DNA of 64,000 bases from an uncultured virus (IMG/VR IMGVR_UViG_3300031857_021139). Its lineage: Duplodnaviria > Heunggongvirae > Uroviricota > Caudoviricetes. Positions 27,241 to 52,900 of the stretch are shown here, in pieces (position 1 is the stretch's first letter; every line of letters starts with the position of its first letter). The stretch lies in IMG/VR virus record IMGVR_UViG_3300031857_021139. One strand, 5' to 3'. Position numbers and translations under genes: made by a program. The notes beneath the pieces are model-generated. The model searched no databases. It was not told the origin of the DNA and saw nothing but the letters and a program-made list of their open reading frames with translations.

Positions 27241-27477
27241 CAATTGATAGTAGACTTCGATTCTTTCCAGCATGTCTTTGAGTACCGGATCCGATTCGGC
27301 ATCATGGTGGATGCGTCCCCAGAGTTTGTGATGATTCAGAATTTTTTCTGTGTCAATGGCCTTTTGGCTGCGGGTATGCAGTTCTCTCTGATCCGGGGCA
27401 GCTCCTATCCTACGACGATAGACGGTGTCTCCACCATCGGGGCTTTCATAGATGTAAGTTTCTTGTCGGTCGCTCAC
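27226..27477 (-). CDS. Hypothetical phage protein
   Basis: YIYESPDGGDTVYRR; coupled ORF. Confidence 0.65.
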   Translation of the reverse strand: MSDRQETYIYESPDGGDTVYRRRIGAAPDQRELHTRSQKAIDTEKILNHHKLWGRIHHDAESDPVLKDMLERIEVYYQLKNSP

Positions 27478-28043
27478 TTGCGTCCTATGACCATGAATCT
27501 GGTATATTTGGTTTCGGGATCTTGTAAGTCGAGATCTCCTTGGTAATTAAGTTCTGCTAAGGGATATCGATCCAAGATGTCTTGGGTGCTGTTAAACTGT
27601 CTGCCGGAGTCATGATCTCTGGCTTGCATGACCACCAGAGTGCCCTGGGGGATGTTATCAAACCATATTCGACCTGGCATGTCTGTGAGGCTGGTGTTGA
27701 TGATCACACCATCATTGGCCAGTTGGCGGTAATCGATGTCATTGGCATCGGCCAATACATGATTCACGTTTTGTGCGCCGATGTGATCCAGCATGCGCTG
27801 ACTTTGGCGTAGCATGTCTCGGTCTCGTTCTACATTGATTATTTTACCGTGATCCAGGACATCCATTAACTTTAGATAAAGGCTGATATTGCCGAACCAT
27901 GATCCCAACACGTACACAGTGCCTACTCGAGGCTGGATGCGAGCCAGTTCACTGATCAGCCAGACCTTGCTGGCAGTGAGATCTCGTGTGAAACTCCCGG
28001 CTAAACTGTAACCACTGCTTTCTGCAAGATCACGAATGTTCAT
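27474..28043 (-). CDS. Methyltransferase-like protein with a putative capsid-targeting N-terminus
   Basis: MNIRDLAE start; VYVLGSWFG, IINTS and RFMVIG motifs. Confidence 0.6.
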   Translation of the reverse strand: MNIRDLAESSGYSLAGSFTRDLTASKVWLISELARIQPRVGTVYVLGSWFGNISLYLKLMDVLDHGKIINVERDRDMLRQSQRMLDHIGAQNVNHVLADANDIDYRQLANDGVIINTSLTDMPGRIWFDNIPQGTLVVMQARDHDSGRQFNSTQDILDRYPLAELNYQGDLDLQDPETKYTRFMVIGRK

Positions 28044-28112
28044 ACAGGACTGAAAGGATAGCGGGGCCGATCGGCGCCGTCATCTTCGGGATACACTGGA
28101 TATTGCACAGGA

Positions 28113-28577
28113 TCATTTTCCTGCGGCAGCGATGGCTGCCCCGTTGTTGAAACTGGGGCTCCAGGAATTTGGGGTGCGTCTTTTACGTTTATACCATTCA
28201 TAACCGGCTCTGTGACCACTACAGTCTACTGTACACGGACTGCCCTTGAAAGTCAACTCGTCTAATTGTTCTTCGTTTGTTTTGGTAGCCACACGCACTG
28301 GCTTTCTACCGCCACCACCTACGTCTTTGCCTGGTTTGCCAGCCCTGCCCTGCGCTTGTCGTTTGCGACGCACGGCCGACGCCTTTTGTTTGTCGCTCAT
28401 GGCCGCAGCCTTGGCAGCGGGCACGCATTTGGCATAGCCCTTTTTCTTGCCAGATGTCCCACATTCAGGATGGCCGCCACCTTTTTTCTTTTTGCCGATG
28501 TTGACCCACCGCTGTTTGAACCATTTACGCAGTCCACCTTGGTAAGCACCTTCGATGATGAATTCTTGTGCTCTCAT
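28113..28577 (-). CDS. Basic putative internal head protein (MRAQEFIIE start)
   Basis: True start is ATG 28577 (ATGA overlap). Contains GLRKWFKQRW and a second module after LDE (CTVDCSGHRAGYEW). Confidence 0.7.
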   Translation of the reverse strand: MRAQEFIIEGAYQGGLRKWFKQRWVNIGKKKKGGGHPECGTSGKKKGYAKCVPAAKAAAMSDKQKASAVRRKRQAQGRAGKPGKDVGGGGRKPVRVATKTNEEQLDELTFKGSPCTVDCSGHRAGYEWYKRKRRTPNSWSPSFNNGAAIAAAGK

Positions 28578-28981
28578 TTTACGATGGGTCCACCCTCGAC
28601 CCAGGCATCGCAGGTGCGCTTGGCCGCGCACTTGAATTTCAAGAACTTGCAATATCCAAGATCGCCGGCATCTATGGTGCTCATGGGGTCCGACCCAGGC
28701 TCGGTTCCGATACCCTTGGCTATGCAATCGAGCATATCGGGACTTTTGTCGAAAGCGGCGCAATTGCCACAAAGAGCTGTCCGAGCCTGGCCGGGATCGT
28801 CCATGTTCCATTCTTCGGCCTTGGCCTGCCAAAATTCGTCATTGGGTTGTCCTGGATCCAAGGGTCCATAGCCGTATTCATCTATGGCCTTTTGCCGATT
28901 TTTAAGATTCACATCGATGCTCCGAGTTGCCTCAGGACAACCTTGGCTCACTGCTTCCATGAGATTGATGAGATCTCTCAT
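28574..28981 (-). CDS. Cys-rich hypothetical protein
   Basis: MRDLINLMEA start; CGNCAAF, GYC, FKC and RTCDAW suggest metal binding. Confidence 0.7.
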   Translation of the reverse strand: MRDLINLMEAVSQGCPEATRSIDVNLKNRQKAIDEYGYGPLDPGQPNDEFWQAKAEEWNMDDPGQARTALCGNCAAFDKSPDMLDCIAKGIGTEPGSDPMSTIDAGDLGYCKFLKFKCAAKRTCDAWVEGGPIVK

Positions 28982-29082
28982 GCCAGTCCCAGTTGTTGTC
29001 TTACCATGCGCACGGCAGCAGCCAGGCTGGGTGCTGTCACTCTGTGCCAGGCCCCTTGTAATTTGATTTCAAAATTTTTCAT
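28978..29082 (-). CDS. 34-aa peptide MKNFEIKLQGAWHRVTAPSLAAAVRMVRQQLGLA
   Basis: Fills the gap exactly, with ATGA overlaps at both ends. Confidence 0.55.
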   Translation of the reverse strand: MKNFEIKLQGAWHRVTAPSLAAAVRMVRQQLGLA

Positions 29083-31172
29083 TCTTCAGCTCCTTTTTTA
29101 GGTCCTTTGCCCATGCGCCATCCACCGCCCTTGGATTTGTACCATTTGGCTGCCCATGCGTTGGCGTAGGCCGATGGATACACATCAAACTTGGATCTGG
29201 CTGCAGACTTTGCCCTGCTCCAGAGACCTGGATTGGTTGGTGTGGGTCTTTTTTTCTTTTCATTGATCTGTTGCTCTTTTACACCTTGCTTGACCAATTG
29301 CTGTGCTATTTTTTGATAGTTGGGATCACGTGGGCTGATAACCTGCCCTCCCACTGTGATTGGTTGCCCCATGCGCCAGGTTCCTGTCTGTGTCGGCACC
29401 GTGGTCGGCGTTTGGGCAGTAACAGGCGCCTTGGTCGCTGCCGCTGGGGCAGCAGATCCGGTTGTGGCAGCGGGCATAGGAGTACCAGTGAGCTGTCCCA
29501 CCATGCTGCCAAATGCGCCAGCACCCCCAGGTGGTGTAGATGATTTTGGAGCAATTGTGCCGGCTGCTGTTCTCGCCGATGCTACATCTTGTTTGAACAT
29601 TCCAGCTCGCTGTCGCAACATCGTGGATTGTCGTTGTAGTTCTCTGGCCTTGTCGATGTCCCCGGAAATGTTTGCTTGCTTGATTTGCTTTTGTATATCT
29701 GCGATTTGATTTTGTATCTTGAGTTTTTCTGACTGGGCCAGGTTTTGCAGGGCCTGTTGTTGCTGGCGATAAGCGCCTTGATTGCCCATGGCTTTGGCTG
29801 ATGTGGCCACATTAGATCTAATATTCATCGCTTTTTCTGCGGATGTTAGATCTCTAAAAGGATTGGTCGTTGGCTGAAATCCAATAGCCCGACCAACGCG
29901 ATCCATGATACCCTCGGTGGTTGATTCAGCCGCTTGTTGTACTAAAGAAAAACGCTGTCGGCGTTGTGCCGGATCAAGGGCCGGCTCATTGGCCGCTAAC
30001 TCATCTGCTGTCGATGCCGGAGAAATCGACACAGGTTCTGATTTCACAGGAGCAGCTGCCGCAGGAGCAGTGGGGGTTTGAGATTTGATCGTAGGTAGCA
30101 CGACACGGGGCGTAGCAACTGGTTTGATCGCGGGGGCTTTGTCCGGCTCGCTCTTGGGTATTGATACCTTTATAGATTTAGAGATATCAGATAGATTGGC
30201 CACTGCTTTTTCAAGACTGTTGATTTCTTTTTGTTGTTCATCGTTGACTCGTGATAGTTGGTCTAACACCGCGTCTGTCTTGGTATCTTTTTCAACAGCT
30301 TGTTGTATACCACCACGGCGTTTTGTCAAGGTGGCGATGCGTTTTTGCAGATCTGACTTGATATCTGTTTCGAGATTGTCAACTTCTTTTTCTAATTTAT
30401 TGATTTCTTGGCTGTCACGACGCTCGGCGTCTTCGAGTTCGTAGGCCAGAGCTTCCACATCAGACGTGGCTTGAGGTTGCCTTGCCCGCATCTTGGACAT
30501 CATCCTTTCGGTACGTCCTTGAGCCCCGGCAGGTGCTTCTGCTACTTCAGATCTTTTTTTTTGAGGAAGGGTGGTTTCGTCCTGTCGTCGAGGACTTTTT
30601 GCGCCACCGGATTGCGTGGGAGAGAAGAGATCACCGGCAGCAGGTTCGACATCTTGCTGTGCCTGCTGGGCACGGGCTTTGATAGCATCTTCCTTTTCCC
30701 AGGCGCTGAGTAGGAAATCAAATCCTTCAGCTGTGCCCATGAAACGATAGAGATCTTGTGCCTTGCCAGCGTCAGTCCACTCCTTGGCATGACCTATGAC
30801 CCACTCCTTGTCACCGGGTAACTTGACCTGGTATTTGACTCTACCGGTCTGATTTTTGATGTACACAGAGATGTCGTTTTTGGCATTGGTTTCAAGGTTG
30901 CGCAGATTCTCCATGCCGCGTATGACATTGGGATCGGATTGCCCTTGCTCATCCAATTTGATGGTCTGCACAGATTGTCCAGTACCTTTGGCATACTCCG
31001 CGGCAGGCCCCAGGCTCATGAATTCTTTGTCGCCTACCTTATAACGATATGCGCTCTGTGGTCGTTCTTTGTCAATGTCACGCAGGGTGAGATCGGGACG
31101 GCCTGCTTGCCTGCGCAGGTATGTAGGCATGTCGCTGGGCTTGAGGGCTTCAAATATATCGTCTAATATCAT
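29079..31172 (-). CDS. Modular coiled-coil protein, putative internal head polyprotein
   Basis: MILDDIFE start; linkers KLDE, EVAE, TTE, QGVKE and QINE; basic C-terminal module KFDVYPSAYAN...YKSKGGGW. Confidence 0.7.
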   Translation of the reverse strand: MILDDIFEALKPSDMPTYLRRQAGRPDLTLRDIDKERPQSAYRYKVGDKEFMSLGPAAEYAKGTGQSVQTIKLDEQGQSDPNVIRGMENLRNLETNAKNDISVYIKNQTGRVKYQVKLPGDKEWVIGHAKEWTDAGKAQDLYRFMGTAEGFDFLLSAWEKEDAIKARAQQAQQDVEPAAGDLFSPTQSGGAKSPRRQDETTLPQKKRSEVAEAPAGAQGRTERMMSKMRARQPQATSDVEALAYELEDAERRDSQEINKLEKEVDNLETDIKSDLQKRIATLTKRRGGIQQAVEKDTKTDAVLDQLSRVNDEQQKEINSLEKAVANLSDISKSIKVSIPKSEPDKAPAIKPVATPRVVLPTIKSQTPTAPAAAAPVKSEPVSISPASTADELAANEPALDPAQRRQRFSLVQQAAESTTEGIMDRVGRAIGFQPTTNPFRDLTSAEKAMNIRSNVATSAKAMGNQGAYRQQQQALQNLAQSEKLKIQNQIADIQKQIKQANISGDIDKARELQRQSTMLRQRAGMFKQDVASARTAAGTIAPKSSTPPGGAGAFGSMVGQLTGTPMPAATTGSAAPAAATKAPVTAQTPTTVPTQTGTWRMGQPITVGGQVISPRDPNYQKIAQQLVKQGVKEQQINEKKKRPTPTNPGLWSRAKSAARSKFDVYPSAYANAWAAKWYKSKGGGWRMGKGPKKGAEE

Positions 31173-32089: not shown

Positions 32090-32526
32090 TCACGAGCCTC
32101 TTTGAGATATGACTTGATCTGCCAGGCATACTTGCCATGCGCTTCTTGGCGCTCGGCAGCAAAGTTGGAAATATCTTCACGACCTTCTTGCGAAGCAGAT
32201 TGGAACAGGGTCTTGCTTAGATCGATCATGGTCTGCGTGTCGGCCAGCAACTCAGTAAGCATGAGTCGGGCACGCGGTACTTTGATCTGTCCTGTGATCT
32301 GGCTGAGTTCTTGAAAACGCTCAAGGCTGCCAGGAGCATATTCGTCAGTGGTGCGGATGAATTCCGCGGTCTTGTCGATGCTTTCTTGGGTATCAGTGTA
32401 GATGCCAGCAAAGAAATCATGCAGTTCACCAAAGTTAGATCCTTCCACGTTCCAGTGGAAGCCCCAGGCCTTGGTAAAATACGCATAACTGCTGCCTAAA
32501 AATGTTTTTAAATCATCAACCAACAT
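32086..32526 (-). CDS. dps: Dps/ferritin-like protein
   Basis: FHWNVEGSNFGELHDFF, DKTAE and HGKYAW ferroxidase-like motifs. Confidence 0.85.
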   Translation of the reverse strand: MLVDDLKTFLGSSYAYFTKAWGFHWNVEGSNFGELHDFFAGIYTDTQESIDKTAEFIRTTDEYAPGSLERFQELSQITGQIKVPRARLMLTELLADTQTMIDLSKTLFQSASQEGREDISNFAAERQEAHGKYAWQIKSYLKEARE

Positions 32527-32692
32527 GGCGTTTCCGTTTCTTTGCAGGATTAAAACTGTTCATATATTTAGCAGGTTTGCCAAAACCCGTGCGCGAGATC
32601 AATGACCCTAAAGATTGAGATATAGGTGCCATAGAACCTGCACTGGTAGTGCTGGCAGCGGCATTTTCCGGAAGGAATTCTTTAGCTCTCAT
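32516..32692 (-). CDS. 58-aa peptide with an MRAKEFLPE start
   Basis: Manual translation MRAKEFLPENAAASTTSAGSMAPISQSLG...KKRKRHVG; below the ORF-track cutoff. Confidence 0.65.
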   Translation of the reverse strand: MRAKEFLPENAAASTTSAGSMAPISQSLGSLISRTGFGKPAKYMNSFNPAKKRKRHVG

Positions 32693-32975
32693 CTAATACC
32701 TCCAACAGGGCTTTCTTGGCCCAGCGTGCCGGCCCTACTTCTATTCGCCAGTTGCTGGGGCGAAATTCCGCAAGATTTGGTCCCACGGGCACTACTCGGA
32801 TCTTGTACTGGCCCGGTGCCGCATTGATCTGCAACATTTCTTCGAGATAATGATTGGTCCATATCCAGGTGCGCTCTGCGAACATCTCGTCGTTGACATA
32901 TATGCGATACACTGGAGGCAATCCTTCCCAATCGCAATCAAGATCGAATAACACTTTGACGAACGCAGTTTTCAC
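32682..32975 (-). CDS. Hypothetical protein
   Basis: PPVYRIYVNDEMFAERTW; GTG start 4 nt after TAAATA. Confidence 0.65.
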   Translation of the reverse strand: MKTAFVKVLFDLDCDWEGLPPVYRIYVNDEMFAERTWIWTNHYLEEMLQINAAPGQYKIRVVPVGPNLAEFRPSNWRIEVGPARWAKKALLEVLDES

Positions 32976-32993: not shown

Positions 32994-34970
32994 TTATTTG
33001 CTTTTTTTCTTGCCGGATTTCATGTTGGCACACCAGTGATACATTTTGGCCTTTTCGCCCGACGCATTTTTAGCACGGGCTCGTAGATCAGTTACACTTC
33101 CGTTGCAACTGGCACCTGCACGTTTCACACGACCTGGTCTGCTTTTTCCCTTGACTTTGCCATCAGCAAAGTTCTCGTCGGTCTTGCTTTTGTAGAATAT
33201 TTTTTCATGATGCGGGCCAGTGGTCTTCATGATTTCGTTGGCCAGCTTGGCCACAGTTATCACTGCACGGTTACTTCTAGGATTGGCCTTGACATCTGCC
33301 CAGTTCTTATAACCATTCTTCTGTGCGGCTTGATCCAAGGCTCGTAGCACTTCGGGTGGAGTTTCTTGCATTTCCTCCAGAGTCTTGGTCGGAGGTTTGA
33401 TACGGTCCGTGGGTAAAGCATGTGTGCGCCAGTATTCTTCGGCACCGGCTGGTGTGGGTGCCCGTTTTTCTTGCCTACGTTGCTTGGCCACTTGCTTGCC
33501 TTGCTTTAGCAGAGCCAACTGACGATCTATTTCTGCTCGCTGGGCTAACAGTTTTGGCAGTTCACTGGGTTGGTAAGGTATTCCATAGATCCGGCTGGCT
33601 TGCTTGATGGCCTGGTCGTAGTCCAGAGTTATGCCTTCACGTCCGGCATCTCTCATGGCCATGGCCGCTGCTTTGAACAATAGGCTGCGGCCAGTGATTT
33701 CGGGGCCTATCTTTACTTCCGTGACACCTGCTGACATATCTTTAGATAATTTTTGTTTAAGTGATTGAATCTTTTGCTGATACATTTTGCATTTTGCATC
33801 ATCACCGGCACGATTTGCAGCCAGGGCCAGTGCTTCCAATTTTGACATTTTCTTTTTGATATCATCGGTGCCTTCCGCCACACCTTGTTTTGATTCACTT
33901 GTATAAGTCGCCCCATAACCTACCCAGGCAGGTCCAGTATACCCCTGGGGATACGCTTTTAGATGTTGGATGGTCCTATGCCACCCTTCAATCAAATCAT
34001 AACCATTGCTCAATTTAGCAACAATGATAGGTTCTTGGCTTACCCCTTTTTGTTGGATCATTTTTTGTTGTAATGCGTGGCGTTCGGTATCTTTGGGCAC
34101 TTGATATGGATTACTCGAACCACCTTCACGCTCTTTGATCATTCGTTGAGTTTTGGGTGTAAAGATGTCAAGTGTGATGGGCAGTTTTTCCAATCGCCAT
34201 CTCACTCGACCAAAATCTCGCTGTATCTCATCTGAAAAATCTTCTAAATCTTTTTGATTTTGATTTCCTTTTGCCTTGGCATATAAAAAATCTCGTTGCA
34301 CATATTCAGGCCATTGTGTGCTTGGAAATTTAGACTGAATCCAAGCCCAAAGTTGATCACGATATTCATTCAAGGAGCCTTCCGAGACACCCTGTTCCCA
34401 CACATTGCTATCGGGTCGATGTTTGGCCCAAAAGCCAGCACCAGCATCGGTCTGCTGGCCACTCCTGCGTATCTTATAACCCAGGCTTTTCACATAGTCA
34501 TACATGGCAGCGGCGATGCCTTGGCCACGATAGCGTTCATCCACCTCAAGATCCTGTGGCATCAACTCACCGTCGTAGTCCACGAACAGCACGGATCCCA
34601 ACTGCTTGTCACCTGTTGACGCTCGCACCATGATTTCGTCATCGTCGCGTTCCATAGATATATCTATGCCACGAAATGCATCTTCCATCAAACCTGTGCT
34701 TCGACGCAGTTTCAAATCGTAATCACGGTCACTTTCATAGTTGGTATTGTATTTTTCATAATAGCGTCGTGCTTCGGCAGGTGTGCCAGCTTCAAATCTA
34801 TGGACTATGCGAGTGGGATCTTCAGCGTGGTATATTTCGTAGCCCTTGTTGAGTCTATCTCTGACCTGGGCCATTTTTTCCATTCTACGATCAACCTGTT
34901 GTCCAGCGCGGCTCAAATAATTTTGTAAACGTTCGTCGCTGACTTCGACGATAAATTCTCTGGCTCTCAT
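32994..34970 (-). CDS. Polyprotein: GNAT acetyltransferase, ParB-like domain and basic C-terminal module
   Basis: MRAREFIVE start; GNAT motif EVDERYRGQGIAAAMY; ParB-like PIIV..YDLIEGWHR; linkers GLME, QGVSE, QGVAE and AGVTE. Confidence 0.75.
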   Translation of the reverse strand: MRAREFIVEVSDERLQNYLSRAGQQVDRRMEKMAQVRDRLNKGYEIYHAEDPTRIVHRFEAGTPAEARRYYEKYNTNYESDRDYDLKLRRSTGLMEDAFRGIDISMERDDDEIMVRASTGDKQLGSVLFVDYDGELMPQDLEVDERYRGQGIAAAMYDYVKSLGYKIRRSGQQTDAGAGFWAKHRPDSNVWEQGVSEGSLNEYRDQLWAWIQSKFPSTQWPEYVQRDFLYAKAKGNQNQKDLEDFSDEIQRDFGRVRWRLEKLPITLDIFTPKTQRMIKEREGGSSNPYQVPKDTERHALQQKMIQQKGVSQEPIIVAKLSNGYDLIEGWHRTIQHLKAYPQGYTGPAWVGYGATYTSESKQGVAEGTDDIKKKMSKLEALALAANRAGDDAKCKMYQQKIQSLKQKLSKDMSAGVTEVKIGPEITGRSLLFKAAAMAMRDAGREGITLDYDQAIKQASRIYGIPYQPSELPKLLAQRAEIDRQLALLKQGKQVAKQRRQEKRAPTPAGAEEYWRTHALPTDRIKPPTKTLEEMQETPPEVLRALDQAAQKNGYKNWADVKANPRSNRAVITVAKLANEIMKTTGPHHEKIFYKSKTDENFADGKVKGKSRPGRVKRAGASCNGSVTDLRARAKNASGEKAKMYHWCANMKSGKKKSK

Positions 34971-35755
34971 CGCAGTTCTATCGGTCGTGTGACTACAATG
35001 TTTTTTCCATATTGCTGTGCCACCATGCGTTTGGCTTGTTCAGGATTGCGTGCCACCACAGTGGTATCCATGCGCTGTGAAGCGGCCCCTTGCGATATTT
35101 TTAGGGTGACTTTGTAGGTTTTGAGTCGGGCCGCGTGGCTCTGAAAATCCTGCGATTCTGTCATGTTCACACCGTAAATCTTGGCCAGCTGTGCTATGGC
35201 ATCATCCACGTTGCTGTCTCGATATAGTATGCCTATGCCACCAGCATCCTGCCAGGCACCTACGTATTTTTTGAAATCATCAACCAAGACATTGGGTCGA
35301 CCACCTGTGGTAGCCATGCGTGCTTTGTCTCCGGTGAATATGGCTGATCCCGATGTGCCGGGATTGTGAGAATCTAACCAGATTTTTTTACCAGCGATGC
35401 TGGGTGCATTCATGCCGCGCAAGGGTGCGCTGAGCACAGTGAAAGGTATGCGATTTTGTCTCAACCAGCGTATGAGTTTCTGGCCGCCGGGCAAGGTAGG
35501 CAAAGTAGCAAAGAATCGTTCAATGAATTCCGGACCTTCGGCTGACAGTTCTGAAATGCTCTGTTCACGCTGTTCTTTTGACCCGATATCTTTGTAACGC
35601 TCTACATGGCTCATACCAAATTTTTTGTTGTGCCAACGGGCCCATTGTGTAAAAAAATCAGCTTGCACACCGTCCATGTCGAGATAGAGATGCGGTTTTT
35701 CTATCTCATCCTTGGTGACTTCGCTGACATTGGTAAACAGTTCGTTGAGGAGCAT
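34967..35755 (-). CDS. HAD-family 5'(3')-nucleotidase-like protein with an extra C-terminal module
   Basis: LYLDMDGVQADF, LSAP, K and LVDD HAD motifs; MLLNELF start 4 nt after TAAATA. Confidence 0.8.
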   Translation of the reverse strand: MLLNELFTNVSEVTKDEIEKPHLYLDMDGVQADFFTQWARWHNKKFGMSHVERYKDIGSKEQREQSISELSAEGPEFIERFFATLPTLPGGQKLIRWLRQNRIPFTVLSAPLRGMNAPSIAGKKIWLDSHNPGTSGSAIFTGDKARMATTGGRPNVLVDDFKKYVGAWQDAGGIGILYRDSNVDDAIAQLAKIYGVNMTESQDFQSHAARLKTYKVTLKISQGAASQRMDTTVVARNPEQAKRMVAQQYGKNIVVTRPIELR

Positions 35756-44001: not shown

Positions 44002-45125
44002 TATACGTACCTTGCAAGGGTGTCGGGTCCCAAATCTCGTATGCGATTGGGAGGAATTCGCACAGTTGAAAAGTGCCAACCATATTGGTATTCCAGTGGA
44101 AGCCCAGTGATATCAACTTGCAACAAGGTCAACTCTTCATCCGAGTCGTAGGCTTTGGCTCCTATCCAACCGGCCACTTGATATATTTCGTCACGCAACT
44201 TCTTTTGATTGCCCTCGTCTACTACTAAGAATGCTTTGCCATCGCGGGGGTCCAATCCTTTGTACATGATTTCTTCTGCGTTTTCAAGGCCAGTGATATG
44301 ATATGCTGTCGTTGGTGTTGATGGTTGTTCAGATTCGACCATCTGAGATTCCATCATCTCTGCACCCACACGATCGGCAATCACACTCCATGCTTCCGCA
44401 TTGGCATTGTCGTTGACGACTAATTCTCTATTTTGTGTTTTGTACAGTCTTTCACCGGCTGCAAACAAAGATTTAATCACAGCAGTGGCAGCACCTTTGT
44501 ACTGACCGGCTGTGGCATCTTCTATCACAACAATCATCGACTCGCCTTCGGCATAGGCATTGAGTGTGAGATAAAATGCTCCACGCACAGTATCACTGCC
44601 AGCAAACGCACTGGCTGCACCTTGTTGTCCTTTGGCTGTGGTCAATCCCACACCTTCTACCACCGACCGACCATACAGTTTGACATCTGGGTATAGTTGG
44701 GCAAACGCATCTTGTGCTACTGCTATGATCTGCTGTGCTGGCATTTGTTCAAAGTCCACTGACTCAACGATATCTGCTTCGGGATCTCTGTTTCTCCAAA
44801 ATGCTTTGCCCGGATCAGTGAGTGCGTGGCTGGGTTCTATATCGTTGCCCAGTTCTTCAGCAAAATCGTACATCATTCGAGCAATGCCTCGACGACGGTA
44901 TTCTGGTTTTACTTCGGCTGTGCTGGCTTGTAAATGATCACCAAGGTTTATAAATGACACACTGCCAACTTCTTGGTCATCAATTGAAGCTGAAATTTCT
45001 AATCTACCTGCTTCTTCGATCCAGGCTCGTAATTTTATACCATTGCGTTCTTCGGAGTAGTTGAAACTGCGATCATACTCCAGTTCGGGCATTGTGTCTT
45101 CGAGGATAAACTCTTGTGCTCGCAT
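44001..45125 (-). CDS. Polyprotein: GNAT, GNAT-like and ART/Tpt1-like modules (MRAQEFILE start)
   Basis: EVKPEYRRRGIARMMY; GQYKGAA...AEAW; AYHIT..IMYKGLDP..LLQVD..IPPNRI; linkers IVE, MME and MVE. Confidence 0.7.
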   Translation of the reverse strand: MRAQEFILEDTMPELEYDRSFNYSEERNGIKLRAWIEEAGRLEISASIDDQEVGSVSFINLGDHLQASTAEVKPEYRRRGIARMMYDFAEELGNDIEPSHALTDPGKAFWRNRDPEADIVESVDFEQMPAQQIIAVAQDAFAQLYPDVKLYGRSVVEGVGLTTAKGQQGAASAFAGSDTVRGAFYLTLNAYAEGESMIVVIEDATAGQYKGAATAVIKSLFAAGERLYKTQNRELVVNDNANAEAWSVIADRVGAEMMESQMVESEQPSTPTTAYHITGLENAEEIMYKGLDPRDGKAFLVVDEGNQKKLRDEIYQVAGWIGAKAYDSDEELTLLQVDITGLPLEYQYGWHFSTVRIPPNRIRDLGPDTLARYV

Positions 45126-45131
45126 GTTATT

Positions 45132-46016
45132 TTATATCTTAGGTGGCATTACAGCACCGGCATGCGGATGTCCAGCTGGGTAACGCGGACTGTGGGTATC
45201 GCCTTGCCACTGGCCGTTGCCTGGCTTTGGCGGACGATAAGTATCACCAACATTGTATGTATTATCATGATCAGTTGGATACCATACAAACACTATCTCA
45301 TGCTGACTATTGGTTACCAGTGCATAAGTGTGTGCTTTTTGTTGCATTACTGCACGTTTACCAGCGTTCTTAGCACCCTTGAGTGTGTGTGCCGCAAATT
45401 GTCCTGCTCGAACTACGTCAGTATAAATGGTATAAGGATCACCCTCGTCAGGTTCAGGTCTTTCAGGCTGTGGCTCAGGAGGCTTTGCAGCCGCATACAA
45501 CGCCATCATATTTTCTAGGCGGCGAATTTCAGCAACTATTTTAGCACGTTCTTCGTATTTTAATCCTGCCATACGTCGTAATTCTCGAGTTAATAATTGA
45601 ATTTTACGGAGAGCAACATTTGGATTAAAATCTGCGGGCACTTCAGGAAGCACATCCCCAACGTTAGATCCAACTTGACTGGCAACTGGATACCAGTCAT
45701 CACCGGTGGCTTCTTTGGTTAATTGAGATCCTGCGTTACCAAATTTAGACAAATCTTGGCTGTCTTGGAGCCACTGATCCCACTTTTGTAGTTCGGCCAT
45801 GACCTGTTTGTATGCTGTGCTGTTAGGATCAATACGCCCGCGGCTTTGTGCCTGCTTGACTGCATTGGTCAGTTCTTGCACACGCTTCATTACATCCTGG
45901 AGACGATAGTTTCCATTGACCTTGGGTAGATTTGGACCAGAGACATATTGTATAACTCTGTCAAATACACCAGCTGGTACTTGTGGGGCTTCTTTTATGA
46001 TTTGTTTTATTTTCAT
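45132..46016 (-). CDS. Modular hypothetical protein (MKIKQIIKE start)
   Basis: CTS-like start; LTKE linker. Confidence 0.65.
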   Translation of the reverse strand: MKIKQIIKEAPQVPAGVFDRVIQYVSGPNLPKVNGNYRLQDVMKRVQELTNAVKQAQSRGRIDPNSTAYKQVMAELQKWDQWLQDSQDLSKFGNAGSQLTKEATGDDWYPVASQVGSNVGDVLPEVPADFNPNVALRKIQLLTRELRRMAGLKYEERAKIVAEIRRLENMMALYAAAKPPEPQPERPEPDEGDPYTIYTDVVRAGQFAAHTLKGAKNAGKRAVMQQKAHTYALVTNSQHEIVFVWYPTDHDNTYNVGDTYRPPKPGNGQWQGDTHSPRYPAGHPHAGAVMPPKI

Positions 46017-46026: not shown

Positions 46027-49000
46027 TTATCTCATCTCCGGCACTACTTCCAAAGGATCATCGATCCGCGACTGCTGTGCCCAACGCTGTGCCACTCTGT
46101 TGGCATCGGCTTGGCTGTTGCCTATGCCACCAAATGTGTGTAGAACTTCATTGGTGTTGGCATTGCGTATCTGCCACCGACCAGAGAATTCCTGTTGTGT
46201 TGATGCAGGAATAAATTCGCGCATGCGTCGCCAGGCTGGAGGTTCTTGTGGATTGGCTTCGATGCTGACGATGTCGCGACGTTGTGCCTGGAGAGCCGAA
46301 CGCACACGATCCATGGCAGCATTGGCATTCTCAGCATCTACGTTGAGGCTGTCTTGAACTTCTTGACCGTTGCGACGTTCACGCCAGATCACTCGGTAGT
46401 ATCCGGTGTCTCTCACAGCACCGGCTGGTTGCGGCTCGCCTATGCGTGCTTGTAAATCTTTGGAATCTTGTGCATTGTCTGCAGCCACTTCTGGACTTAC
46501 TTTGGGTTCTTTTAATCGTTTGGCCACCTGCGCTCTTGGGCTCAGTTTGTTTTTTGGTTCTGGAGTCTCGTCGGGTCTACGGAATACTTTCCAGTCATCC
46601 GACAATCGATCTCCATATTCTGCTTGGACTTTTTGTGTGGCTTGATCAATATCTCGAGCTCGCACAGTTAAAAAGACATCGCCATAACTGTCTTTGACAT
46701 CAAACCATGGCTGTTTGATACGGACTTCAAGTTCGTTGATGTCCTTGCCGTATTGTCTCAAGAACAGATCGTAGGCACTGTCATAGTCCGTGGCATAGAA
46801 TGTGCCAACAATTCCATCGGGACTGTCTTTGTTGTCTCGACGGTAGACTTCGTATTCTTCTTTACCTGTGGTAGGAATTTCTTTCTGTAGTACAGCATCA
46901 GCCCACTGTTTTTTCAACTGTTCTGGTGAAATGGTTCCTGCGGCATATTCAGAGAACAGTTTCAATCCATCATCCTGAGCTCCTGGGCTGATCAATTTGT
47001 ATAATTTTTTAGCATACTCTCGTCGCTCCAAAGAAGGACTACCAGCGATCTGCATGGCTCGAGCAAAGCGCAACATGGTATTTTTTATGTCGTCATATTC
47101 GCCACGGCTTTCCATGCTGAGATAATCACCACCAGGACTGCGGAATTCAATATAGCCATCTTTGATGTGTGCCGAAGTGTATTTGCTGAGACCTACACCA
47201 TCCTGCACGTAACGAGCAGCCAACTCAATGAGATTCTTTTGAACCAGTTCCAAGGCACCCAAGGGGTCTAATTTGGCTTCTGTTAGTTCGCCACGATTAC
47301 GGGCTCCGGCCATGTTCTGGCGCAGTTTGCTCATAGCCGAGGCCGCATAGGTATTTGATGCACGACCAAACTTGTCCAGGATGTATTCGTCGCCCATGAA
47401 CAACACCAGTTTCACGTAGTCAACATCACCACCCACATAGGGTATGCTTATGCCCATGTGTAGACCAGTTGATGAGTTAGTGTAAGCATCGGCTTCGTTG
47501 TTACCCCACTCAATCACTGCTTTCAATTTGTCCAAAGTCTCTGGCAATGGCATGGGCGGAGATACGATTTCTAATCCCATGTCTTCGTAATCGTCGGGGT
47601 CCAGGCTGCCATCAGGTTCGATGATCCAACGATCATCTCGGCGGGTGGCAGAATGATATCCAGAACTGACCTTGACAGGCATATCCACTGCGCTTTGCAA
47701 GCTGCTGCCAATGTCTTCCCAGTCGCGTTCGCCGCCACCTTGACTACTGCCGGTGTAGTAAGGCCAATCCAGACCAAATTCGTTGGCGATGTCGCTCATC
47801 CAGCGCAGACCCACATCCGAAAAGAAAGAATCATCATCACCTGACCAGTTGTCGCGGAAATTGTCCAAGGCAGTGTCATAATAGCCATCTTGCCTGCGTA
47901 TGCTGTCTTCCACTTGCTCTTGTAATTCTGTGTCTACAGCATCAGCGGCCTCCAGATATTGTTCGTAGTCTGAGTTTTCAGCCGCGTAGGCTTCTTGATC
48001 CGAATTTTTTGTAAAACTCGGCGCCTTCGAACCAGCGGCTATGATCCTGTCTGCTTCTTCGTCGGACTTCTGTAGGGCGTCTGTGAGGTATACATAGATG
48101 CGGTCGCTGAGGGGTGTGTCATCTAACAACACTTCGCGTACGAGATCTTCGGCTTCGTTGCCAAAATCGTCTATGATCTGACTGTCACGCCATTCCATGT
48201 AGGTTTCATCTAGTCTTTCTTCCAGACGATCTTGTTGGCGTTGTGTCATGCCATAACCATAGTCGTCATTGGCAAAGAAATCTACTACCTGTGCCACGCT
48301 AAAAGCACGCTCATCTGCGTCATAGTCGGGCTCCATTTCCTCGTCATCATCATCACGCTTGGTATTGCGGAAGATCATTTCCGCTTCGAAACCGGCACGG
48401 ATACCCTGGGCTTCGGGCGATCGCGCCCAGTCTTCCAGAGACGTGGGATTCATCTTGACTTCTAATAGATCCTCTTCCTCATCGATCTCCACACAGTTGG
48501 GCACCATCCTATTGCCCTTCCGCTTCATGCCTTGCTGTTGATAACCGTCCCAGCATTTCTCATCCAGTTTCACTGCTTCCAGGAGATTGTTTAATTTTTT
48601 CATCAACAGTTGCGGACGACCTTGGCTGTCGGTTTTCAGTCCCAGTTTGTTGGCTTCCTTGCCTGTCTGGCCAGGTTGCACATCCACAGTCAGTGCCATC
48701 TTGAAACGCGGATCATTCTTTTGTTTTTCTGTTGGGATGTAGCCCGATGCCTCGGCCACTTGCTTTCTCATCTGCTGTGCCAGTCTATAGGTCTTGATGA
48801 ATTCTTGTTCTTGTCGAGTCATGGGCCGCCCAAGATTGGCCTTCATATGCAAGAACTTGTAGTAATCATCGTGTGCTTTTTGGTTCTTGGCCACGGGAGT
48901 TTGTATGGACTCTTTCCGCATGTCCGACTGTGCTTCTCGGCGCCATTGATCAACCAGTTCCGGTGATGGCGATGGTTTGGCACCCTGCCGTCCATTGCGT

Positions 49001-50721
49001 ATCCAATCTTTCATGGCTTGTTGGAATTCTTCCTTGGCACCAGCACGGATGATATCTCCACGGCTGGCAGTGCCATAGGGCTTGGTGGCCTGGATTGCAC
49101 GACCAATGGCTTGGGCACCTTGTATGGCATCAGTGCCTGTGGTAGCACAACCTGGCGTGCCAGCTACACAGGCGGCGGCAGCCAAGGCACCTAACTTGGA
49201 TTTGATACCTTCATCAAGGTTGCCAAAATATTCGGGATTGAGATCTGCGTAACGGCGCATGATGATACCGGCAGCGGCATTGGCTTCGTTTTCCCAGTCA
49301 CTGCCAGTGTCACCGCTGTGTTCTGGCATAGGAGAGATTTCGTTCTGGCGATGATGTGCCAGTTCGTGGGCCACGGTGCGCATGATGTCCAAAGGATGGC
49401 GATTGACCAGGCTCACATACAAAGTATTTTCTTCGGGCTTGTAACGACCAAATGTGTTGTTGCGTTCGCTCCAGGCTGGATCTCTGCGGAACTTGATCTT
49501 GGGCATGTGATCTATGCCCAATTGTCCTGCGGCAAAGGCTATGAATCTCTCCAGCATGTGTTCAGCACCTTGGTCCTCATCCATGCGATAAGCACCTTCG
49601 GGATCTTTGTTCTTGGCCCTGCGATCAATGTCCAAGGTCTTCATGCCCAGCCGATCGAGATCCTTTTTGTAGAGATGCTCTATGGGTTCCGACCCAAAAC
49701 TCAAAACGGTTTGTGGAGCGCCTTTGCCGTAGGCACGAGGATCTGCGTGCTTGAGGTCACTGATGTCTTGGCCTAACTTGTACCAATCATACACGTCACT
49801 GACATTGACTAACACAGTGCCTGCTGGCATTTCAGGTTTGAATTCTGGACCTGGTGGTTCATCATTGGGATCGTAATCCTCGACACGGCTTTCGCCGCCG
49901 CCATCACCACCACCACCGGCATCGCTGCCTTCTGTTGAGCCATATCCAAAGCCTGGATAAAAATATCCACCAAATGATCCCCAACGGCGCTTGCTACGTT
50001 TCTTTTTCCGTTCGCTGAGACTCATCAATTGATCTTTGGCCTGCAGGCGTGCGTTGCGCAGTCGTTCAAGGGTGCCGTTGCCTCGCAACACCTTGAAGGC
50101 CAGATTCTCCGGACCAAACTCACCGTGCTGGTCCAATCCGCTCTGACGGAGCTCACGTATCTTGGTAGCCATCTTGTCCATGCGATCGAGGTCCCCGGAT
50201 TCAATGGCCTGATCAATACGTGATGCAAGATCTTCGTACTTGCTCTTGACTGAAATGTCATCTACGTCAGGTTGTCTACGATTAGGAACACGCACCCATT
50301 TGTCATGCAACACTGAATATATGCCCTGGCTGTGATGTGGTTTGCGGGCATCTTGCACATAGAGTTCTACGTCATAGCCACCGATCTTGAAATCATGCTG
50401 ATCGTTGTACTGATATTTCTTCGCATCAAAAAGTTCACGATAGACTTCGCTGTCATCAGCCCTGGGCAGGTCTGTGACTAAATGAAGATCTATGTCTGAA
50501 TGAGGGGTGTATGTATAGGCTGCATTAGAGCCAGACACAGTGATGTCTTTGACTTCGACACCTATGCCCAGGCTTTCGCGGAAGTCGTCTGCGATAGCCA
50601 GCAGACGTTCGCGCACTTGTGGCAACATCTGCTCGTCTGGCCCCCAGATTCGGGGGTTTAGACGATCATTAAATTTTACAGCGTCTGAAAGACGATAATT
50701 TTCTAACTCACGGAGATCCAT
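46027..50721 (-). CDS. 1564-aa polyvalent protein: Pol-beta-type nucleotidyltransferase, HExxH metallopeptidase, amidoligase and small modules
   Basis: VSGSNAAY...SDIDLH; VAHELAH; GFEAE, EPDGSL, GLEIVSPP, STGLHM and IEFRSPG. Confidence 0.8.
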   Translation of the reverse strand: MDLRELENYRLSDAVKFNDRLNPRIWGPDEQMLPQVRERLLAIADDFRESLGIGVEVKDITVSGSNAAYTYTPHSDIDLHLVTDLPRADDSEVYRELFDAKKYQYNDQHDFKIGGYDVELYVQDARKPHHSQGIYSVLHDKWVRVPNRRQPDVDDISVKSKYEDLASRIDQAIESGDLDRMDKMATKIRELRQSGLDQHGEFGPENLAFKVLRGNGTLERLRNARLQAKDQLMSLSERKKKRSKRRWGSFGGYFYPGFGYGSTEGSDAGGGGDGGGESRVEDYDPNDEPPGPEFKPEMPAGTVLVNVSDVYDWYKLGQDISDLKHADPRAYGKGAPQTVLSFGSEPIEHLYKKDLDRLGMKTLDIDRRAKNKDPEGAYRMDEDQGAEHMLERFIAFAAGQLGIDHMPKIKFRRDPAWSERNNTFGRYKPEENTLYVSLVNRHPLDIMRTVAHELAHHRQNEISPMPEHSGDTGSDWENEANAAAGIIMRRYADLNPEYFGNLDEGIKSKLGALAAAACVAGTPGCATTGTDAIQGAQAIGRAIQATKPYGTASRGDIIRAGAKEEFQQAMKDWIRNGRQGAKPSPSPELVDQWRREAQSDMRKESIQTPVAKNQKAHDDYYKFLHMKANLGRPMTRQEQEFIKTYRLAQQMRKQVAEASGYIPTEKQKNDPRFKMALTVDVQPGQTGKEANKLGLKTDSQGRPQLLMKKLNNLLEAVKLDEKCWDGYQQQGMKRKGNRMVPNCVEIDEEEDLLEVKMNPTSLEDWARSPEAQGIRAGFEAEMIFRNTKRDDDDEEMEPDYDADERAFSVAQVVDFFANDDYGYGMTQRQQDRLEERLDETYMEWRDSQIIDDFGNEAEDLVREVLLDDTPLSDRIYVYLTDALQKSDEEADRIIAAGSKAPSFTKNSDQEAYAAENSDYEQYLEAADAVDTELQEQVEDSIRRQDGYYDTALDNFRDNWSGDDDSFFSDVGLRWMSDIANEFGLDWPYYTGSSQGGGERDWEDIGSSLQSAVDMPVKVSSGYHSATRRDDRWIIEPDGSLDPDDYEDMGLEIVSPPMPLPETLDKLKAVIEWGNNEADAYTNSSTGLHMGISIPYVGGDVDYVKLVLFMGDEYILDKFGRASNTYAASAMSKLRQNMAGARNRGELTEAKLDPLGALELVQKNLIELAARYVQDGVGLSKYTSAHIKDGYIEFRSPGGDYLSMESRGEYDDIKNTMLRFARAMQIAGSPSLERREYAKKLYKLISPGAQDDGLKLFSEYAAGTISPEQLKKQWADAVLQKEIPTTGKEEYEVYRRDNKDSPDGIVGTFYATDYDSAYDLFLRQYGKDINELEVRIKQPWFDVKDSYGDVFLTVRARDIDQATQKVQAEYGDRLSDDWKVFRRPDETPEPKNKLSPRAQVAKRLKEPKVSPEVAADNAQDSKDLQARIGEPQPAGAVRDTGYYRVIWRERRNGQEVQDSLNVDAENANAAMDRVRSALQAQRRDIVSIEANPQEPPAWRRMREFIPASTQQEFSGRWQIRNANTNEVLHTFGGIGNSQADANRVAQRWAQQSRIDDPLEVVPEMR

Positions 50722-50735: not shown

Positions 50736-51611
50736 TTATTTGGTTTTGGCGGCTTTGGCTTTGCGAGCGGCCGGTTTCTTGTCTTCCGCAGGTGTTTTGG
50801 TGCTTTCGCTGGGTTGATTTGTATTCAACACAGTGGGTGCAGTAACAGGTGCCTGGCTGGCTGGAGTTACTTGGACATTGGTACCAAATTCTCGGGCAAA
50901 GGCTTCATACAAGGGTTGCTGTTGGGCGTAGTCAAACACATAATTACCGGTATGACGCAACAACACACGCTTGTCCACCCAGATCTTGCCGCCGAGATCA
51001 CGCCAATTTTCACAGAAAGTCCAGTCTTCCGAATAGTAGCGATTCTCACGCACCGCGGTATCATAGTAAGTCTTTAGATGCTTGTCCAGTTCCTTGGGCA
51101 AGCCTATATCGTTGTTGAAAGGCTTCACAGCAGGATGAGAATTAAGTTTATCAAACACGTGGCGCTTGACAAGCATGAATCCTGTTCCAGTCTTTGAAAC
51201 TTCTTGAAGACCATCTTCCCCAGTTTCGGCGCCGTCAAAGCCGTTGACCACCCACTTCACTGGCAAGGTTTTCATAGGATACAAGCCACCTATCACGTCA
51301 ACGTCTCTACAAAGCAGGACCAAGAGATGCCAAGGTTCCCAACCGATGTCGGCATCGATGAACATGAGATGTGTGCTGTCAGGGTTGTTGAGGAATTTGG
51401 CCACAAGTGTATTGCGGGCACGTGATATCAATGATTCATTGGTCATGGTTTCCATGGTCCACTCCAAGCCCAGTTGTCGGCAGGTGTTGGACCATTTGAT
51501 GTAACTCATGAATGTGGATTCTGTAAGCATGCCGCCGTAGCAGGGCATGCAGATATGAACACGGGTCTGTCTCAGTAGATCTACGTTTACGGTGATTTGT
51601 TGTTCGGCCAT
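50736..51611 (-). CDS. GT-A fold glycosyltransferase-like protein
   Basis: ICMPCYGG, ESLISRARN, FIDAD, GTGFML and SEDWTFC motifs. Confidence 0.7.
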   Translation of the reverse strand: MAEQQITVNVDLLRQTRVHICMPCYGGMLTESTFMSYIKWSNTCRQLGLEWTMETMTNESLISRARNTLVAKFLNNPDSTHLMFIDADIGWEPWHLLVLLCRDVDVIGGLYPMKTLPVKWVVNGFDGAETGEDGLQEVSKTGTGFMLVKRHVFDKLNSHPAVKPFNNDIGLPKELDKHLKTYYDTAVRENRYYSEDWTFCENWRDLGGKIWVDKRVLLRHTGNYVFDYAQQQPLYEAFAREFGTNVQVTPASQAPVTAPTVLNTNQPSESTKTPAEDKKPAARKAKAAKTK

Positions 51612-51670
51612 TTGGCATCCTCTCAAAATATACGCAGATATTTAACGACTATTTTGGAGGGTGAGATATT

Positions 51671-51766
51671 TTAGTTCAGGGGCAAGCGCCAGGGCAGATT
51701 CACTGGCATAGGAATCTGTCGGCGACCGGGTCTGGGCATGGAAGGTATGGGACTGGGATGTCTCAT
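51671..51766 (-). CDS. 31-aa Pro/Arg-rich peptide
   Basis: MRHPSPIPSMPRPGRRQIPMPVNLPWRLPLN; ATGA overlap with the upstream peptide gene. Confidence 0.4.
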   Translation of the reverse strand: MRHPSPIPSMPRPGRRQIPMPVNLPWRLPLN

Positions 51767-51882
51767 TTTTTCTTGCGTCCGGCGCAGTGTGCTCTTTGGC
51801 TGAAACCGCGAGGACGTTGGCAATTGATACTGCGTTTGTACTTTTGGCTCCATTTTTCGGAGATGAATTCTTTAGCCCGCAT
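51763..51882 (-). CDS. 39-aa basic peptide with an MRAKEFISE start
   Basis: Manual translation MRAKEFISEKWSQKYKRSINCQRPRGFSQRAHCAGRKKK. Confidence 0.7.
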   Translation of the reverse strand: MRAKEFISEKWSQKYKRSINCQRPRGFSQRAHCAGRKKK

Positions 51883-52900
51883 TTTTCTCGTCGAGATAAT
51901 CGCTCATTTCGATTTCACGACCACGTGCGATAGGGCGTCGACCTTGTTTGGCCATGAATGCTTGGTATTCCGCCAGGGCTTGGACCATGCGATCTACCAC
52001 TTCGCCTTTTTGTAAGACATAGTGGAGTCGGTCATAATCACCAGATTTCAACATCTGTAGCATGCTGGAGAATTTGCCTGCGAGATTGGATTTGAGACTG
52101 GCTTCATCCCAGGTTCCCATGCCACCATCGGGTCTGATCTGATGGCCAGCATCAGGGTCGTTGATCAATACTGCTTCGTCTATGTCACTGTCCATGGAGC
52201 TGGCTATTTCAGCTCCAGCCACACGTCCGGCCAATTGCCCCAAAGCACCGGCACCAGCAGATCGTGCCACTGCGCCGCCCAATGCAGCTCCTAACATGGG
52301 AGCAAATTCCTTGACTTCACTGCCAATGACCTCGTCAAAAATTTTCACGATCACATCGGCTAACTTGGTTTTGGTCTGGGTGTCAGGATACAACTGTTTG
52401 ACCAGGCGTGTTTTTTGTTCCTCGTCCATGCCAGGCCATTTGGCGCGGATCTCTGTGGCCGATGTCATGCCTGGTCCAAACTGTACCGTGGGCAGATATA
52501 CCATGTAACCGTGCTGGTCCATGGGTTGGAGATTGTTTCTTTTGTAAGGTTGCAGGTAGGAAGACGTGCCGTCTTTTTTCACGCCTCCAGCCAAGGGTTG
52601 CTGTTCGCGATCTTTTTCACTGCGAGCAAAGATCAGCACAGTGTCTTTGGGATCATAATGCTGAGTTATTTCTTTGGCCTGGAACGGCGATTTGACCTGG
52701 ATGAATCTGTGTCCGTCTACGCCGGCAATGCGAGCCAGTTTTTGTTTTACTTCAAAAGGAAACGGACGGTTAGATGTATCTGCTGTGGCTGCTACATAAA
52801 TGTCTGCCGAGGGAAATGCTTCACGTGCGGCATCGTACAATGCTTTGTGCCCTGCATGGAATGGGTGGAAACCACCTGGTATGATCACGAGCTTTTTCAT
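51872..52900 (-). CDS. HIGH-motif (cytidylyltransferase-like) nucleotidyltransferase with extra C-terminal modules
   Basis: PGGFHPFHAGH and SATEIR; linkers VKE and IDE. Confidence 0.8.
   Translation of the reverse strand: MKKLVIIPGGFHPFHAGHKALYDAAREAFPSADIYVAATADTSNRPFPFEVKQKLARIAGVDGHRFIQVKSPFQAKEITQHYDPKDTVLIFARSEKDREQQPLAGGVKKDGTSSYLQPYKRNNLQPMDQHGYMVYLPTVQFGPGMTSATEIRAKWPGMDEEQKTRLVKQLYPDTQTKTKLADVIVKIFDEVIGSEVKEFAPMLGAALGGAVARSAGAGALGQLAGRVAGAEIASSMDSDIDEAVLINDPDAGHQIRPDGGMGTWDEASLKSNLAGKFSSMLQMLKSGDYDRLHYVLQKGEVVDRMVQALAEYQAFMAKQGRRPIARGREIEMSDYLDEKNAG

Follow-up and report, generated by a model that had tools for sequence, protein, structure and literature searches.

A nine-residue N-terminal tag on unrelated proteins of an uncultured giant phage, a probable capsid-targeting sequence of the T4 type

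In a 64,000-nucleotide stretch of DNA from an uncultured virus of the Caudoviricetes (IMG/VR record IMGVR_UViG_3300031857_021139; hereafter the window), nine open reading frames (ORFs) begin with nearly the same nine residues, MRAxEFIxE in consensus, and continue into bodies that belong to different families or to no known family (Pfam, PHROGs). This N-terminal tag is probably a lineage-specific capsid-targeting sequence (CTS) of the T4 type, accompanied by joints inside chained cargo proteins that would be cut by the prohead protease. A six-frame regular-expression scan of the window recovers exactly nine M-R-A-x-[E/D]-F starts over the full 64 kb, each of them an ATG on the minus strand. The corresponding DNA pattern has 9 matches against 0.04 expected from 100 shuffles, none of which contained nine or more. 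The nine ORFs with a shared leader that an earlier, sequence-only reading of this DNA had proposed are thus borne out at the same coordinates, and are listed here, each named after the position of its tag start:

g51882, 51763..51882, minus strand: 39 residues, MRAKEFISE followed by a 30-residue basic module; isoelectric point (pI) of the mature protein 11.5.
g45125, 44001..45125, minus strand: 374 residues, MRAQEFILE; a GNAT module at about residues 10-121 and a second cargo unit at 122-374.
g44001, 43657..44001, minus strand: 114 residues, MRALEFIMTE; body without a known family.
g43656, 43078..43656, minus strand: 192 residues, MRAQDFISE; kinase-like body.
g43081, 42500..43081, minus strand: 193 residues, MRAKDFISE; basic, with a GNAT-like fold.
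g42503, 41793..42503, minus strand: 236 residues, MRAQEFVIE; body without a known family in Pfam or PHROGs.
g34970, 32994..34970, minus strand: 658 residues, MRAREFIVE; a chain of at least five modules.
g32692, 32516..32692, minus strand: 58 residues, MRAKEFLPE; a small basic protein with a mature pI of 11.8.
g28577, 28113..28577, minus strand: 154 residues, MRAQEFIIE; basic, with a mature pI of 10.5.

Homologues were found for both of the short ORFs, g51882 and g32692, and the syntenic counterpart of the latter in a relative (L308) begins MKIHEIMES. The start of g28577 sits within a longer in-frame ORF with a TTG start, a spurious reading frame of 239 residues (28113-28832, minus strand) that causes longest-ORF calling to mask both the 28577 start and the gene at 28574-28981. 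The start at 28577 is supported by an ATGA overlap with that upstream gene and by the ortholog in a relative, which begins at the tag.

The tag is under selection as a peptide, is portable, and has a sharp end at Glu. The nine window tags use three Arg, three Ala, both Glu and both Phe codons, and the DNA upstream of their starts is unrelated between genes. Among 146 distinct tags in IMG/VR, the codons at residues 3, 5, 6, 7 and 9 match the usage of protein bodies, the lone biased codon being that of Arg2, which is AGA in 79% of tags versus 33% in bodies; this bias may represent a second-codon preference for translation initiation. The synonymous variation, together with the unrelated upstream DNA, argues that it is the peptide on which selection acts.

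The conserved Glu is residue 9 in eight of the window tags and residue 10 in the MRALEFIMTE of g44001. Seven of the nine end in [L/I]-x-E, with one V-I-E (g42503) and one motif shifted by a single residue (g44001); Asp is found at residue 5 in two of the nine, and never at residue 9. With M-R-A-x-E-F-I fixed and residues 8 and 9 left free, a scan gives 144 distinct hits, of which 136 have Glu at residue 9 and none has Asp there; three of the remaining eight have a Glu one or two residues further on, and residues 10-14 show no conservation. Such retention of Glu, to the exclusion of Asp, agrees with the Glu specificity reported for gp21, the prohead protease of T4. The tag is disordered in both of the AF2 models made, those of g43081 and g45125.

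The obvious point of comparison is the CTS of T4, for which the first 10 residues of IPIII are enough for head incorporation, residues 4 and 7 serve targeting, and residues 8 and 10 serve processing by gp21, which cleaves after L/I-X-E; Asp at the last position of the CTS blocks processing but not targeting (PMC9026906). In the T4 record, IPII and IPIII begin MKTYQEFIAE, as the sequence-only reading had stated, and IPI begins MKTFKEFTS. Other N-termini in that record are MELITELFDE (Alt), MLKEQLIAE (gp22), MEGLIE (gp67), MNEPQLLIE (gp21), MAKINELLRE (gp24) and MIDKDYIAE (Inh). As with the T4 CTS, the window tag is a short N-terminal peptide common to otherwise unrelated proteins; its core, EFIxE, corresponds to T4 residues 6-10 and ends in [I/L]-x-Glu, and its Phe, Ile and Glu fall on functionally mapped T4 positions. 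T4-like phages load varied proteins through the targeting sequence (PMC9026906), and the internal-protein sets of T-even phages are diverse, with the targeting sequence alone in common (PMC3012670). Further likenesses are the presence of small basic cargo and of a likely ART-superfamily domain, variation of the locus from relative to relative, and an S77 protease in related genomes. The differences are equally concrete, in that the window tag has nine residues and a Met-Arg-Ala start, whereas the T4 sequence has ten residues; at least nine tagged genes lie within 25 kb, as opposed to a handful in T4; and modules are chained through the cleavage motif, often with Val at position P3. In addition, the window tag is carried by uncultured phages of about 350 kb.

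Two of the tagged proteins of the window, g34970 and g45125, are chains of modules joined at [V/I/L]-x-Glu. In the case of g45125, the joint is DIVE121|S122 (codon 44765-44763), which lies in the context DPEADIVE|SVDFEQM. Among the best 120 homologues of this protein, 73 are about 262 residues long and have the tag abutting SVDFEQM directly, with the first residue after the tag aligning to residue 122. Glu121 is invariant in 58 of 58 aligned sequences, and the AF2 model of g45125 has a predicted local distance difference test (pLDDT) score below 50 at residues 1-19 and 120-124. For g34970, the joints are GLME96|D, GVSE197|G, SLNE202|Y, GVTE418|V and TLEE533|M, and freestanding homologues headed by the tag have their starts at or close to residues 97, 194, 203 and 534. 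The module at 419 is preceded by V-x-E in 59 of 59 hits, and that at 534 by [V/L/I]-x-E in 15 of 15; a further joint is predicted at GVAE366|G.

The same arrangement is found with the g43081 module, which is internal in 45 of the 63 representatives whose alignment reaches the module start. The residue before the internal module is Glu in 42 of these 45, and the third residue back is V, L or I in 40, even as the modules further upstream are mutually unrelated. The joints thus keep the three-residue motif and lose the targeting part of the tag, which speaks for selection to maintain cleavage and against a neutral leftover of gene fusion. The pool of modules is very large, with 4,917 and 4,455 short relatives at E <=0.001. 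A general joint signature, [Q/E/G]-G-[V/I/L]-x-E, was also tried and set aside as a poor detector, with 3 hits inside the region and 2 outside.

Homologues of the cargo make the portability of the tag apparent. The tag is carried by 97 of the best 120 homologues of g45125, where it stands ahead of several different downstream modules, and the body of g28577 is found without a leader as gp52 of Pelagibacter phage HTVC023P. The g51882 module follows MKTFKQFQE in SynMITS9220M01 and MKSFKQFQE in Bellamy, in both cases among structural and packaging genes, and is internal in S-SM2, S-CAM9 and P-TIM68, with Glu directly before it. The g43081 module is N-terminal in 18 representatives, with leaders that include MRANEFIYE and MRAKEFIKE as well as the ten-residue, T4-type MIRFKEFITE, MRTFKEYLAE and MKTFRQFLLE. 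That homologous cargo has differing leaders indicates that cargo carries the address typical of its phage lineage. The earlier proposal of a portable tag on unrelated bodies therefore holds, on the grounds of the tagless and differently tagged homologues. In SynMITS9220M01 (L309:4001-4120) and Bellamy (L310:4001-4156), the very basic protein of 39 to 51 residues is encoded just upstream of the large terminase gene.

A motif scan of the kind suggested by the sequence-only reading was carried out with patterns on the window and on IMG/VR and gave, besides the nine window starts, more than 140 distinct tag-bearing ORFs in IMG/VR. The tag pattern has at least 148 matches at at least 127 loci in this database, with very diverse downstream bodies, and all but one of the matches listed read M-R-A though Ser was allowed at residue 2. 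Judged from these records, the tag is a clade marker of uncultured phages with genomes of about 350 kb. Three near-complete giant records have 4 or 5 strict tags each, and the reversed control pattern has 0. Tandem paralogues of about 125 residues, with the MRA tag and an SPxxxFKGY(P/K)(R/K) tail, are found in relatives (L071:233-990, L036:601-1382 and L032); this family is present in most tag-bearing contigs, and was not seen in the window; searches for it in Pfam, PHROGs and GenBank phages were all negative.

The T4-type prohead protease, Peptidase_S77 (PF03420), was sought in 36 tag-bearing records with contigs of at least 30 kb, and is present in six of the six that are at least 190 kb long. 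Another 29 of the searched records are fragments with a CheckV completeness of 7-35%, pieces of genomes of about 350 kb. One small complete record is without PF03420, and its tag match is 28 residues long and evidently due to chance. A close relative of the window phage, the complete 352,754-bp IMG/VR record G002, encodes PF03420 and is 79.9% identical to the window in DNA polymerase, 71.5% in an AAA+ protein and 82.3% in a third core protein. In the 113,601 residues of G002 that were scanned, 7 of 15 [E/D]-F-[I/L/V/M]-x-E pentamers are located at ORF residues 5-9.

The cargo region itself is, by the same comparison, hypervariable. Of 13 proteins from this region that were compared with G002, seven lack a match there at E 1e-5, set against flanking core genes that are 71-82% identical; for the GNAT part of g45125 the identity is 32.5%. 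Such hypervariability resembles that of the internal-protein loci of T-even phages (PMC3012670).

As to what the tag would deliver, g45125 has a GNAT domain (PF00583, E 2e-5, 25.3 bits against a cut-off of 20.7) and a tandem GNAT match by fold (Foldseek, E 6e-4). The C-terminal domain of the same protein matches the KptA/Tpt1 fold (Foldseek E 4.8e-4, with a probability of 1.00 to TkoKptA), with a root-mean-square deviation of 4.3 over 106 columns against 1wfx. Against PF01885 it gives E 0.21, which is under the family cut-off; a sequence search of the PDB with the C-terminal part was without result, and tblastn against GenBank phages gave no match for g45125. From its modelled fold, the C-terminus is likely a Tpt1/KptA-like domain of the ART superfamily. 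For g43081, the AF2 model has a mean pLDDT of 89.1, with residues 1-17 below 50, and its best PDB matches are all GNAT acetyltransferases but weak ones (E from 1.4e-3, probability 0.99, TM score 0.35-0.44); the protein is thus likely GNAT-like, by fold alone.

In the longest tagged protein, g34970, GNAT (PF00583) scores 18.8 bits, just under the cut-off, and homologues carry PF00583. Its modules are an N-terminal module, GNAT, an FPTWP module with a weak hint of ParB_N, others, and a basic C-terminal module last. The kinase-like assignment of g43656 comes from PHROG 15752 (T7 gp0.7-type protein kinase; E 2.8e-6, residues 20-191), and g28577 matches PHROG 23735 from residue 14. An atlas search with g42503 yielded no usable lead. 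The list of enzymes given in the sequence-only reading can therefore be kept in part: GNAT, kinase-like and ART-like proteins are found under the strict tag, and the nucleotidase, methyltransferase and nucleotidyltransferase have looser N-termini.

If the tag functions as the T4 CTS does, its nine residues, which probably form a short amphipathic helix that presents Phe6 and Ile7 on the same side, would dock newly made cargo on the scaffolding core of the prohead. The T4-type Peptidase_S77 protease would then cut after Glu9, at [I/L/V]-x-Glu, and also at the [I/L/V]-x-Glu motifs between the modules of g34970 and g45125. Once matured, the pieces would stay packaged alongside the DNA and pass into the host upon infection. 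Among the proteins delivered by this route would be the GNAT-type proteins, the Tpt1/KptA-like ART-fold domain, the kinase-like protein and the three small, very basic ones.

Several observations weigh against such a system. The likeness to T4 extends over about five residues, too short a stretch to prove homology, and T4 Tyr4 has no counterpart; moreover, g42503 (V-I-E) and g44001 (I-M-T-E) deviate from strict L/I-x-E, and many joints have Val at P3, which is absent from the T4 literature consulted. The joints could in part be relics of gene fusion at tags, though their invariance argues for selection. There are no head genes in the window, and the prohead protease is inferred from relatives; in G002, the tags are at 54-74 kb and 263 kb and the protease is at 224 kb, not beside the head module. 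The motif TAAATA-N5-ATG, which precedes operons containing tagged genes, is also found ahead of the peptide deformylase gene and does not single out cargo. Finally, none of the six cultured giant relatives searched carries the tag, so that no published virion proteome bears on it: the strict tag has 0 hits in Atu_ph07 and Phosso, and a relaxed pattern has 0 in CBB and 0 in Vibrio phage 2.275.O. The relaxed pattern has 1 hit in GAP32 and 2 in 121Q, versus 1 control hit, and these are not counted as the tag; it also has 0 in T4, whose tag spacing differs.

A different fate for the same proteins is that they enter the prohead as accessory core, scaffold or DNA-condensing proteins, or are degraded and expelled, with the enzymes acting before or during assembly and without injection. 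This is unlikely, yet it is the best placed of the alternatives. Among the nine tagged proteins are three very small and strongly basic ones (mature pI 10.5 to 11.8), like the DNA-associated internal proteins of T4, and the T4 core proteins gp22, gp67 and gp68, which in the T4 record show an [L/I]-x-E by residue 10, are cut to fragments that mostly leave the head (PMC9026906). Folded enzymes of the GNAT, Tpt1/KptA-like and kinase-like types are, however, improbable scaffolds, and hypervariability between close relatives is a better fit to host-directed cargo of an arms race than to structural parts. Furthermore, IPI and Alt of T4, which bear such propeptides, are injected (PMC3012670, PMC9026906, PMC5512222).

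Less likely still is that the tag addresses a partner other than the prohead, such as the ClpB-like AAA+ or DnaJ-like protein of the phage, another assembly, or a different Glu-specific protease. Genes for the AAA+ (PHROG 4871), DnaJ-like and peptide deformylase proteins lie at 54.5-58.1 kb, beside the tagged region, and the tagged genes of G002 are, as noted, not adjacent to head genes. The tag nonetheless has both the core and the terminal cleavage motif of the T4 tag, which has been defined by experiment; in T4-like cyanophages, homologous cargo has T4-type tags and is encoded among structural and packaging genes; and the joints retain the three-residue protease motif and not the remainder of the tag. 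Lastly, a shared start that is a feature of the nucleic acid without a role as a peptide, be it a translation-initiation element or a recombination cassette, would account for the AGA bias of Arg2 and the exchange of modules exactly at the tag, but is very improbable, and its RNA-level form is rejected, given body-like codon usage at the other five conserved residues, unrelated upstream DNA, a Glu9 that is never Asp, and internal joints that initiate nothing and are still [V/I/L]-x-E.

The CTS reading can be extended from the window to its relatives. It is an evenly balanced proposition that the whole clade of phages of about 350 kb loads a fast-evolving, mix-and-match arsenal through MRAxEFIxE, possibly with MILxDLFE as a second class, and through [V/I/L]-x-Glu joints, encoded either as single genes or as polyproteins cut by the prohead protease. 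In that case acetyltransferases would be part of the arsenal, along with an RNA/DNA-end ADP-ribosyl/phosphotransferase-like enzyme, modules of kinase-like and ParB-like type, and small DNA-binding proteins.

Chained cargo of this type is reminiscent of the polyvalent proteins of Iyer et al. 2017, in which disparate enzymatic domains are predicted to be packaged and injected and for which proteolytic release has been proposed (PMC5512222). For instance, g45125 combines a GNAT and a Tpt1/KptA-like domain, and g34970 combines GNAT, a ParB-like hint and other modules. Processing of polyvalent proteins is ascribed to an internal metallopeptidase (MPTase), and MuF or portal fusions serve as their markers (PMC5512222), whereas no MuF, portal or peptidase domain was found by Pfam at E <=0.01 in the 28 region proteins scanned; here the putative address has nine residues, and cleavage at [V/I/L]-x-E would fall to the prohead protease. 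In the giant phages phiKZ, 201phi2-1 and SPN3US, a protease related to gp21 cleaves a large number of the proteins inside the head after Glu, and the propeptides are thought to target proteins to the prohead (PMC5694885, PMC9026906). Those propeptides are mostly longer than 100 residues, have an S/A-x-E motif and belong to another lineage, and no short universal tag is described for them.

No paper on this tag, on tag sets of this size in giant phages, or on joints cut by a prohead protease was found in the accessible literature, subscription-only papers being outside the search. The term 'capsid targeting sequence' is used there for T4, SPN3US/phiKZ, P1 and T4 engineering, or in reference-list mentions alone. 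Mullaney and Black 1996 and older T4-like genome papers, which are among the latter, may mention CTS-like starts in other T4-like phages. Relative to the T4 principle, what would be new is the nine-residue MRA tag, the size of the tag set and the [V/I/L]-x-E joints; tag-based loading itself is known.

If the tag works like the T4 CTS, sequence by itself would suffice to list what uncultured giant phages package and inject, a task that now requires virions to be purified and analysed by mass spectrometry. Candidate tools of host takeover or anti-defence in the first minutes of infection would then be pre-made acetyltransferases together with a Tpt1/KptA-like enzyme, and T4's ten-residue address would belong to a larger family, in which each lineage has its own address, co-varying with the head core. 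The joints would represent a polyprotein mode of encoding cargo, with the prohead protease as the processing enzyme, and tag and joints might be used to load foreign proteins in other large capsids, as has already been done with the T4 tag.

The sequence-only reading also placed a group of looser N-termini in the same class. All six exist, with starts at 28043, 28981, 31172, 35755, 46016 and 50721, and belong to the following genes:

Methyltransferase-like protein, 27474..28043, minus strand: 189 residues, MNIRDLAE; TIGR04364 at E 3.6e-6, well under the cut-off.
135-residue protein, 28574..28981, minus strand: MRDLINLME, a nine-residue looser N-terminus with Leu7 and Glu9.
697-residue protein, 29079..31172, minus strand: MILDDIFE, a candidate second leader class (MILxDLFE type).
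NT5C-type nucleotidase, 34967..35755, minus strand: starts MLLNELFTNVSE, a looser N-terminus; PF06941 at E 6.5e-9.
294-residue protein, 45132..46016, minus strand: MKIKQIIKE, a nine-residue looser N-terminus with Ile7 and Glu9.
1564-residue multidomain protein, 46027..50721, minus strand: MDLRELE; a nucleotidyltransferase-like N-terminus and an amidoligase-like domain; tag status doubtful.

As a class, these N-termini are weakly above background. An [L/I]-x-E motif within the first 11 residues is found in 6 of 20 region genes without a strict tag, in 3 of 41 genes outside the region and in 47 of 447 genes of G002 (p ~0.02-0.05, with the gene starting at 28981 left out of the gene list). Given this marginal enrichment, the looser N-termini were not counted as tagged, apart from the support for the MILxDLFE type, which starts 16 of 45 chains holding the g43081 module. 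The ortholog of the 697-residue protein in L308 begins MITLDLFE, and the window protein has a possible joint, GVKE633|Q. The domains of the 1564-residue protein are assigned from PHROG 36119 (E 2e-41) and PF12224 (E 2.2e-5). Its PHROG 36119 N-terminus has homologues in cyanophages and Maribacter phages, and the first ~580 residues alone match G002, in three stretches at 67.0-68.8 kb. NCBIfam, searched with 15 proteins, gave no useful match beyond the weak TIGR04364.

With regard to expression, TAAATA-N5-ATG is found ahead of the genes starting at 35755, 50721, 52900 and 57279, with a GTG-start version at 32975, and fixes the start of the nucleotidase (35755). The motif positions, all on the minus strand, are 32985, 35765, 50732, 52911 and 57290, and also 36101, 51644 and 53889. 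In the window, TAAATA[C/T] is present 13 times on the minus strand versus 1 on the plus strand. Of 141 tagged genes in IMG/VR, 10 have TAAATA at a distance of exactly 11 bases from the ATG and 19 have it 8-30 bases ahead of the start; control stretches of 100 bases have the motif 5 times. Messages starting at such motifs would be almost leaderless and would have no Shine-Dalgarno sequence. By analogy with the T4 late-promoter consensus, TAAATA may be a late promoter, and the genes behind it would then be expressed late.

The operon containing g51882 is headed by an untagged gene, preceded by TAAATA-N5-ATG:

Cytidylyltransferase-like protein, 51872..52900, minus strand: 342 residues, MKKLVIIPGG.

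In an operon with tagged genes is also a Dps/ferritin-like protein (32086-32526, minus strand; PF00210, E 4.7e-15), which has no N-terminal extension past the Pfam domain and is apparently untagged. The adjoining genes at 54573-58076, on the minus strand, encode the ClpB-like AAA+ protein (769 residues, PHROG 4871, E 1e-236), the peptide deformylase and the DnaJ-like protein.

All called genes in the window are on the minus strand, except for one or two. No near-identical DNA was found among GenBank phages. The family-B DNA polymerase of the window shares 46-49% identity with its counterparts in Sinorhizobium phage Phosso and Agrobacterium phage Atu_ph07; for Rak2-like giant phages the figure is about 41%. 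Away from the tagged genes, at 2290-15463 on the minus strand, is a set of sugar- and nucleotide-modification genes, consisting of two nucleotide-sugar epimerases, a UDP-glucose dehydrogenase, methyltransferases, a glycosyltransferase, a QueD-like enzyme and a GTP cyclohydrolase, which may point to modification of the DNA or of a surface.

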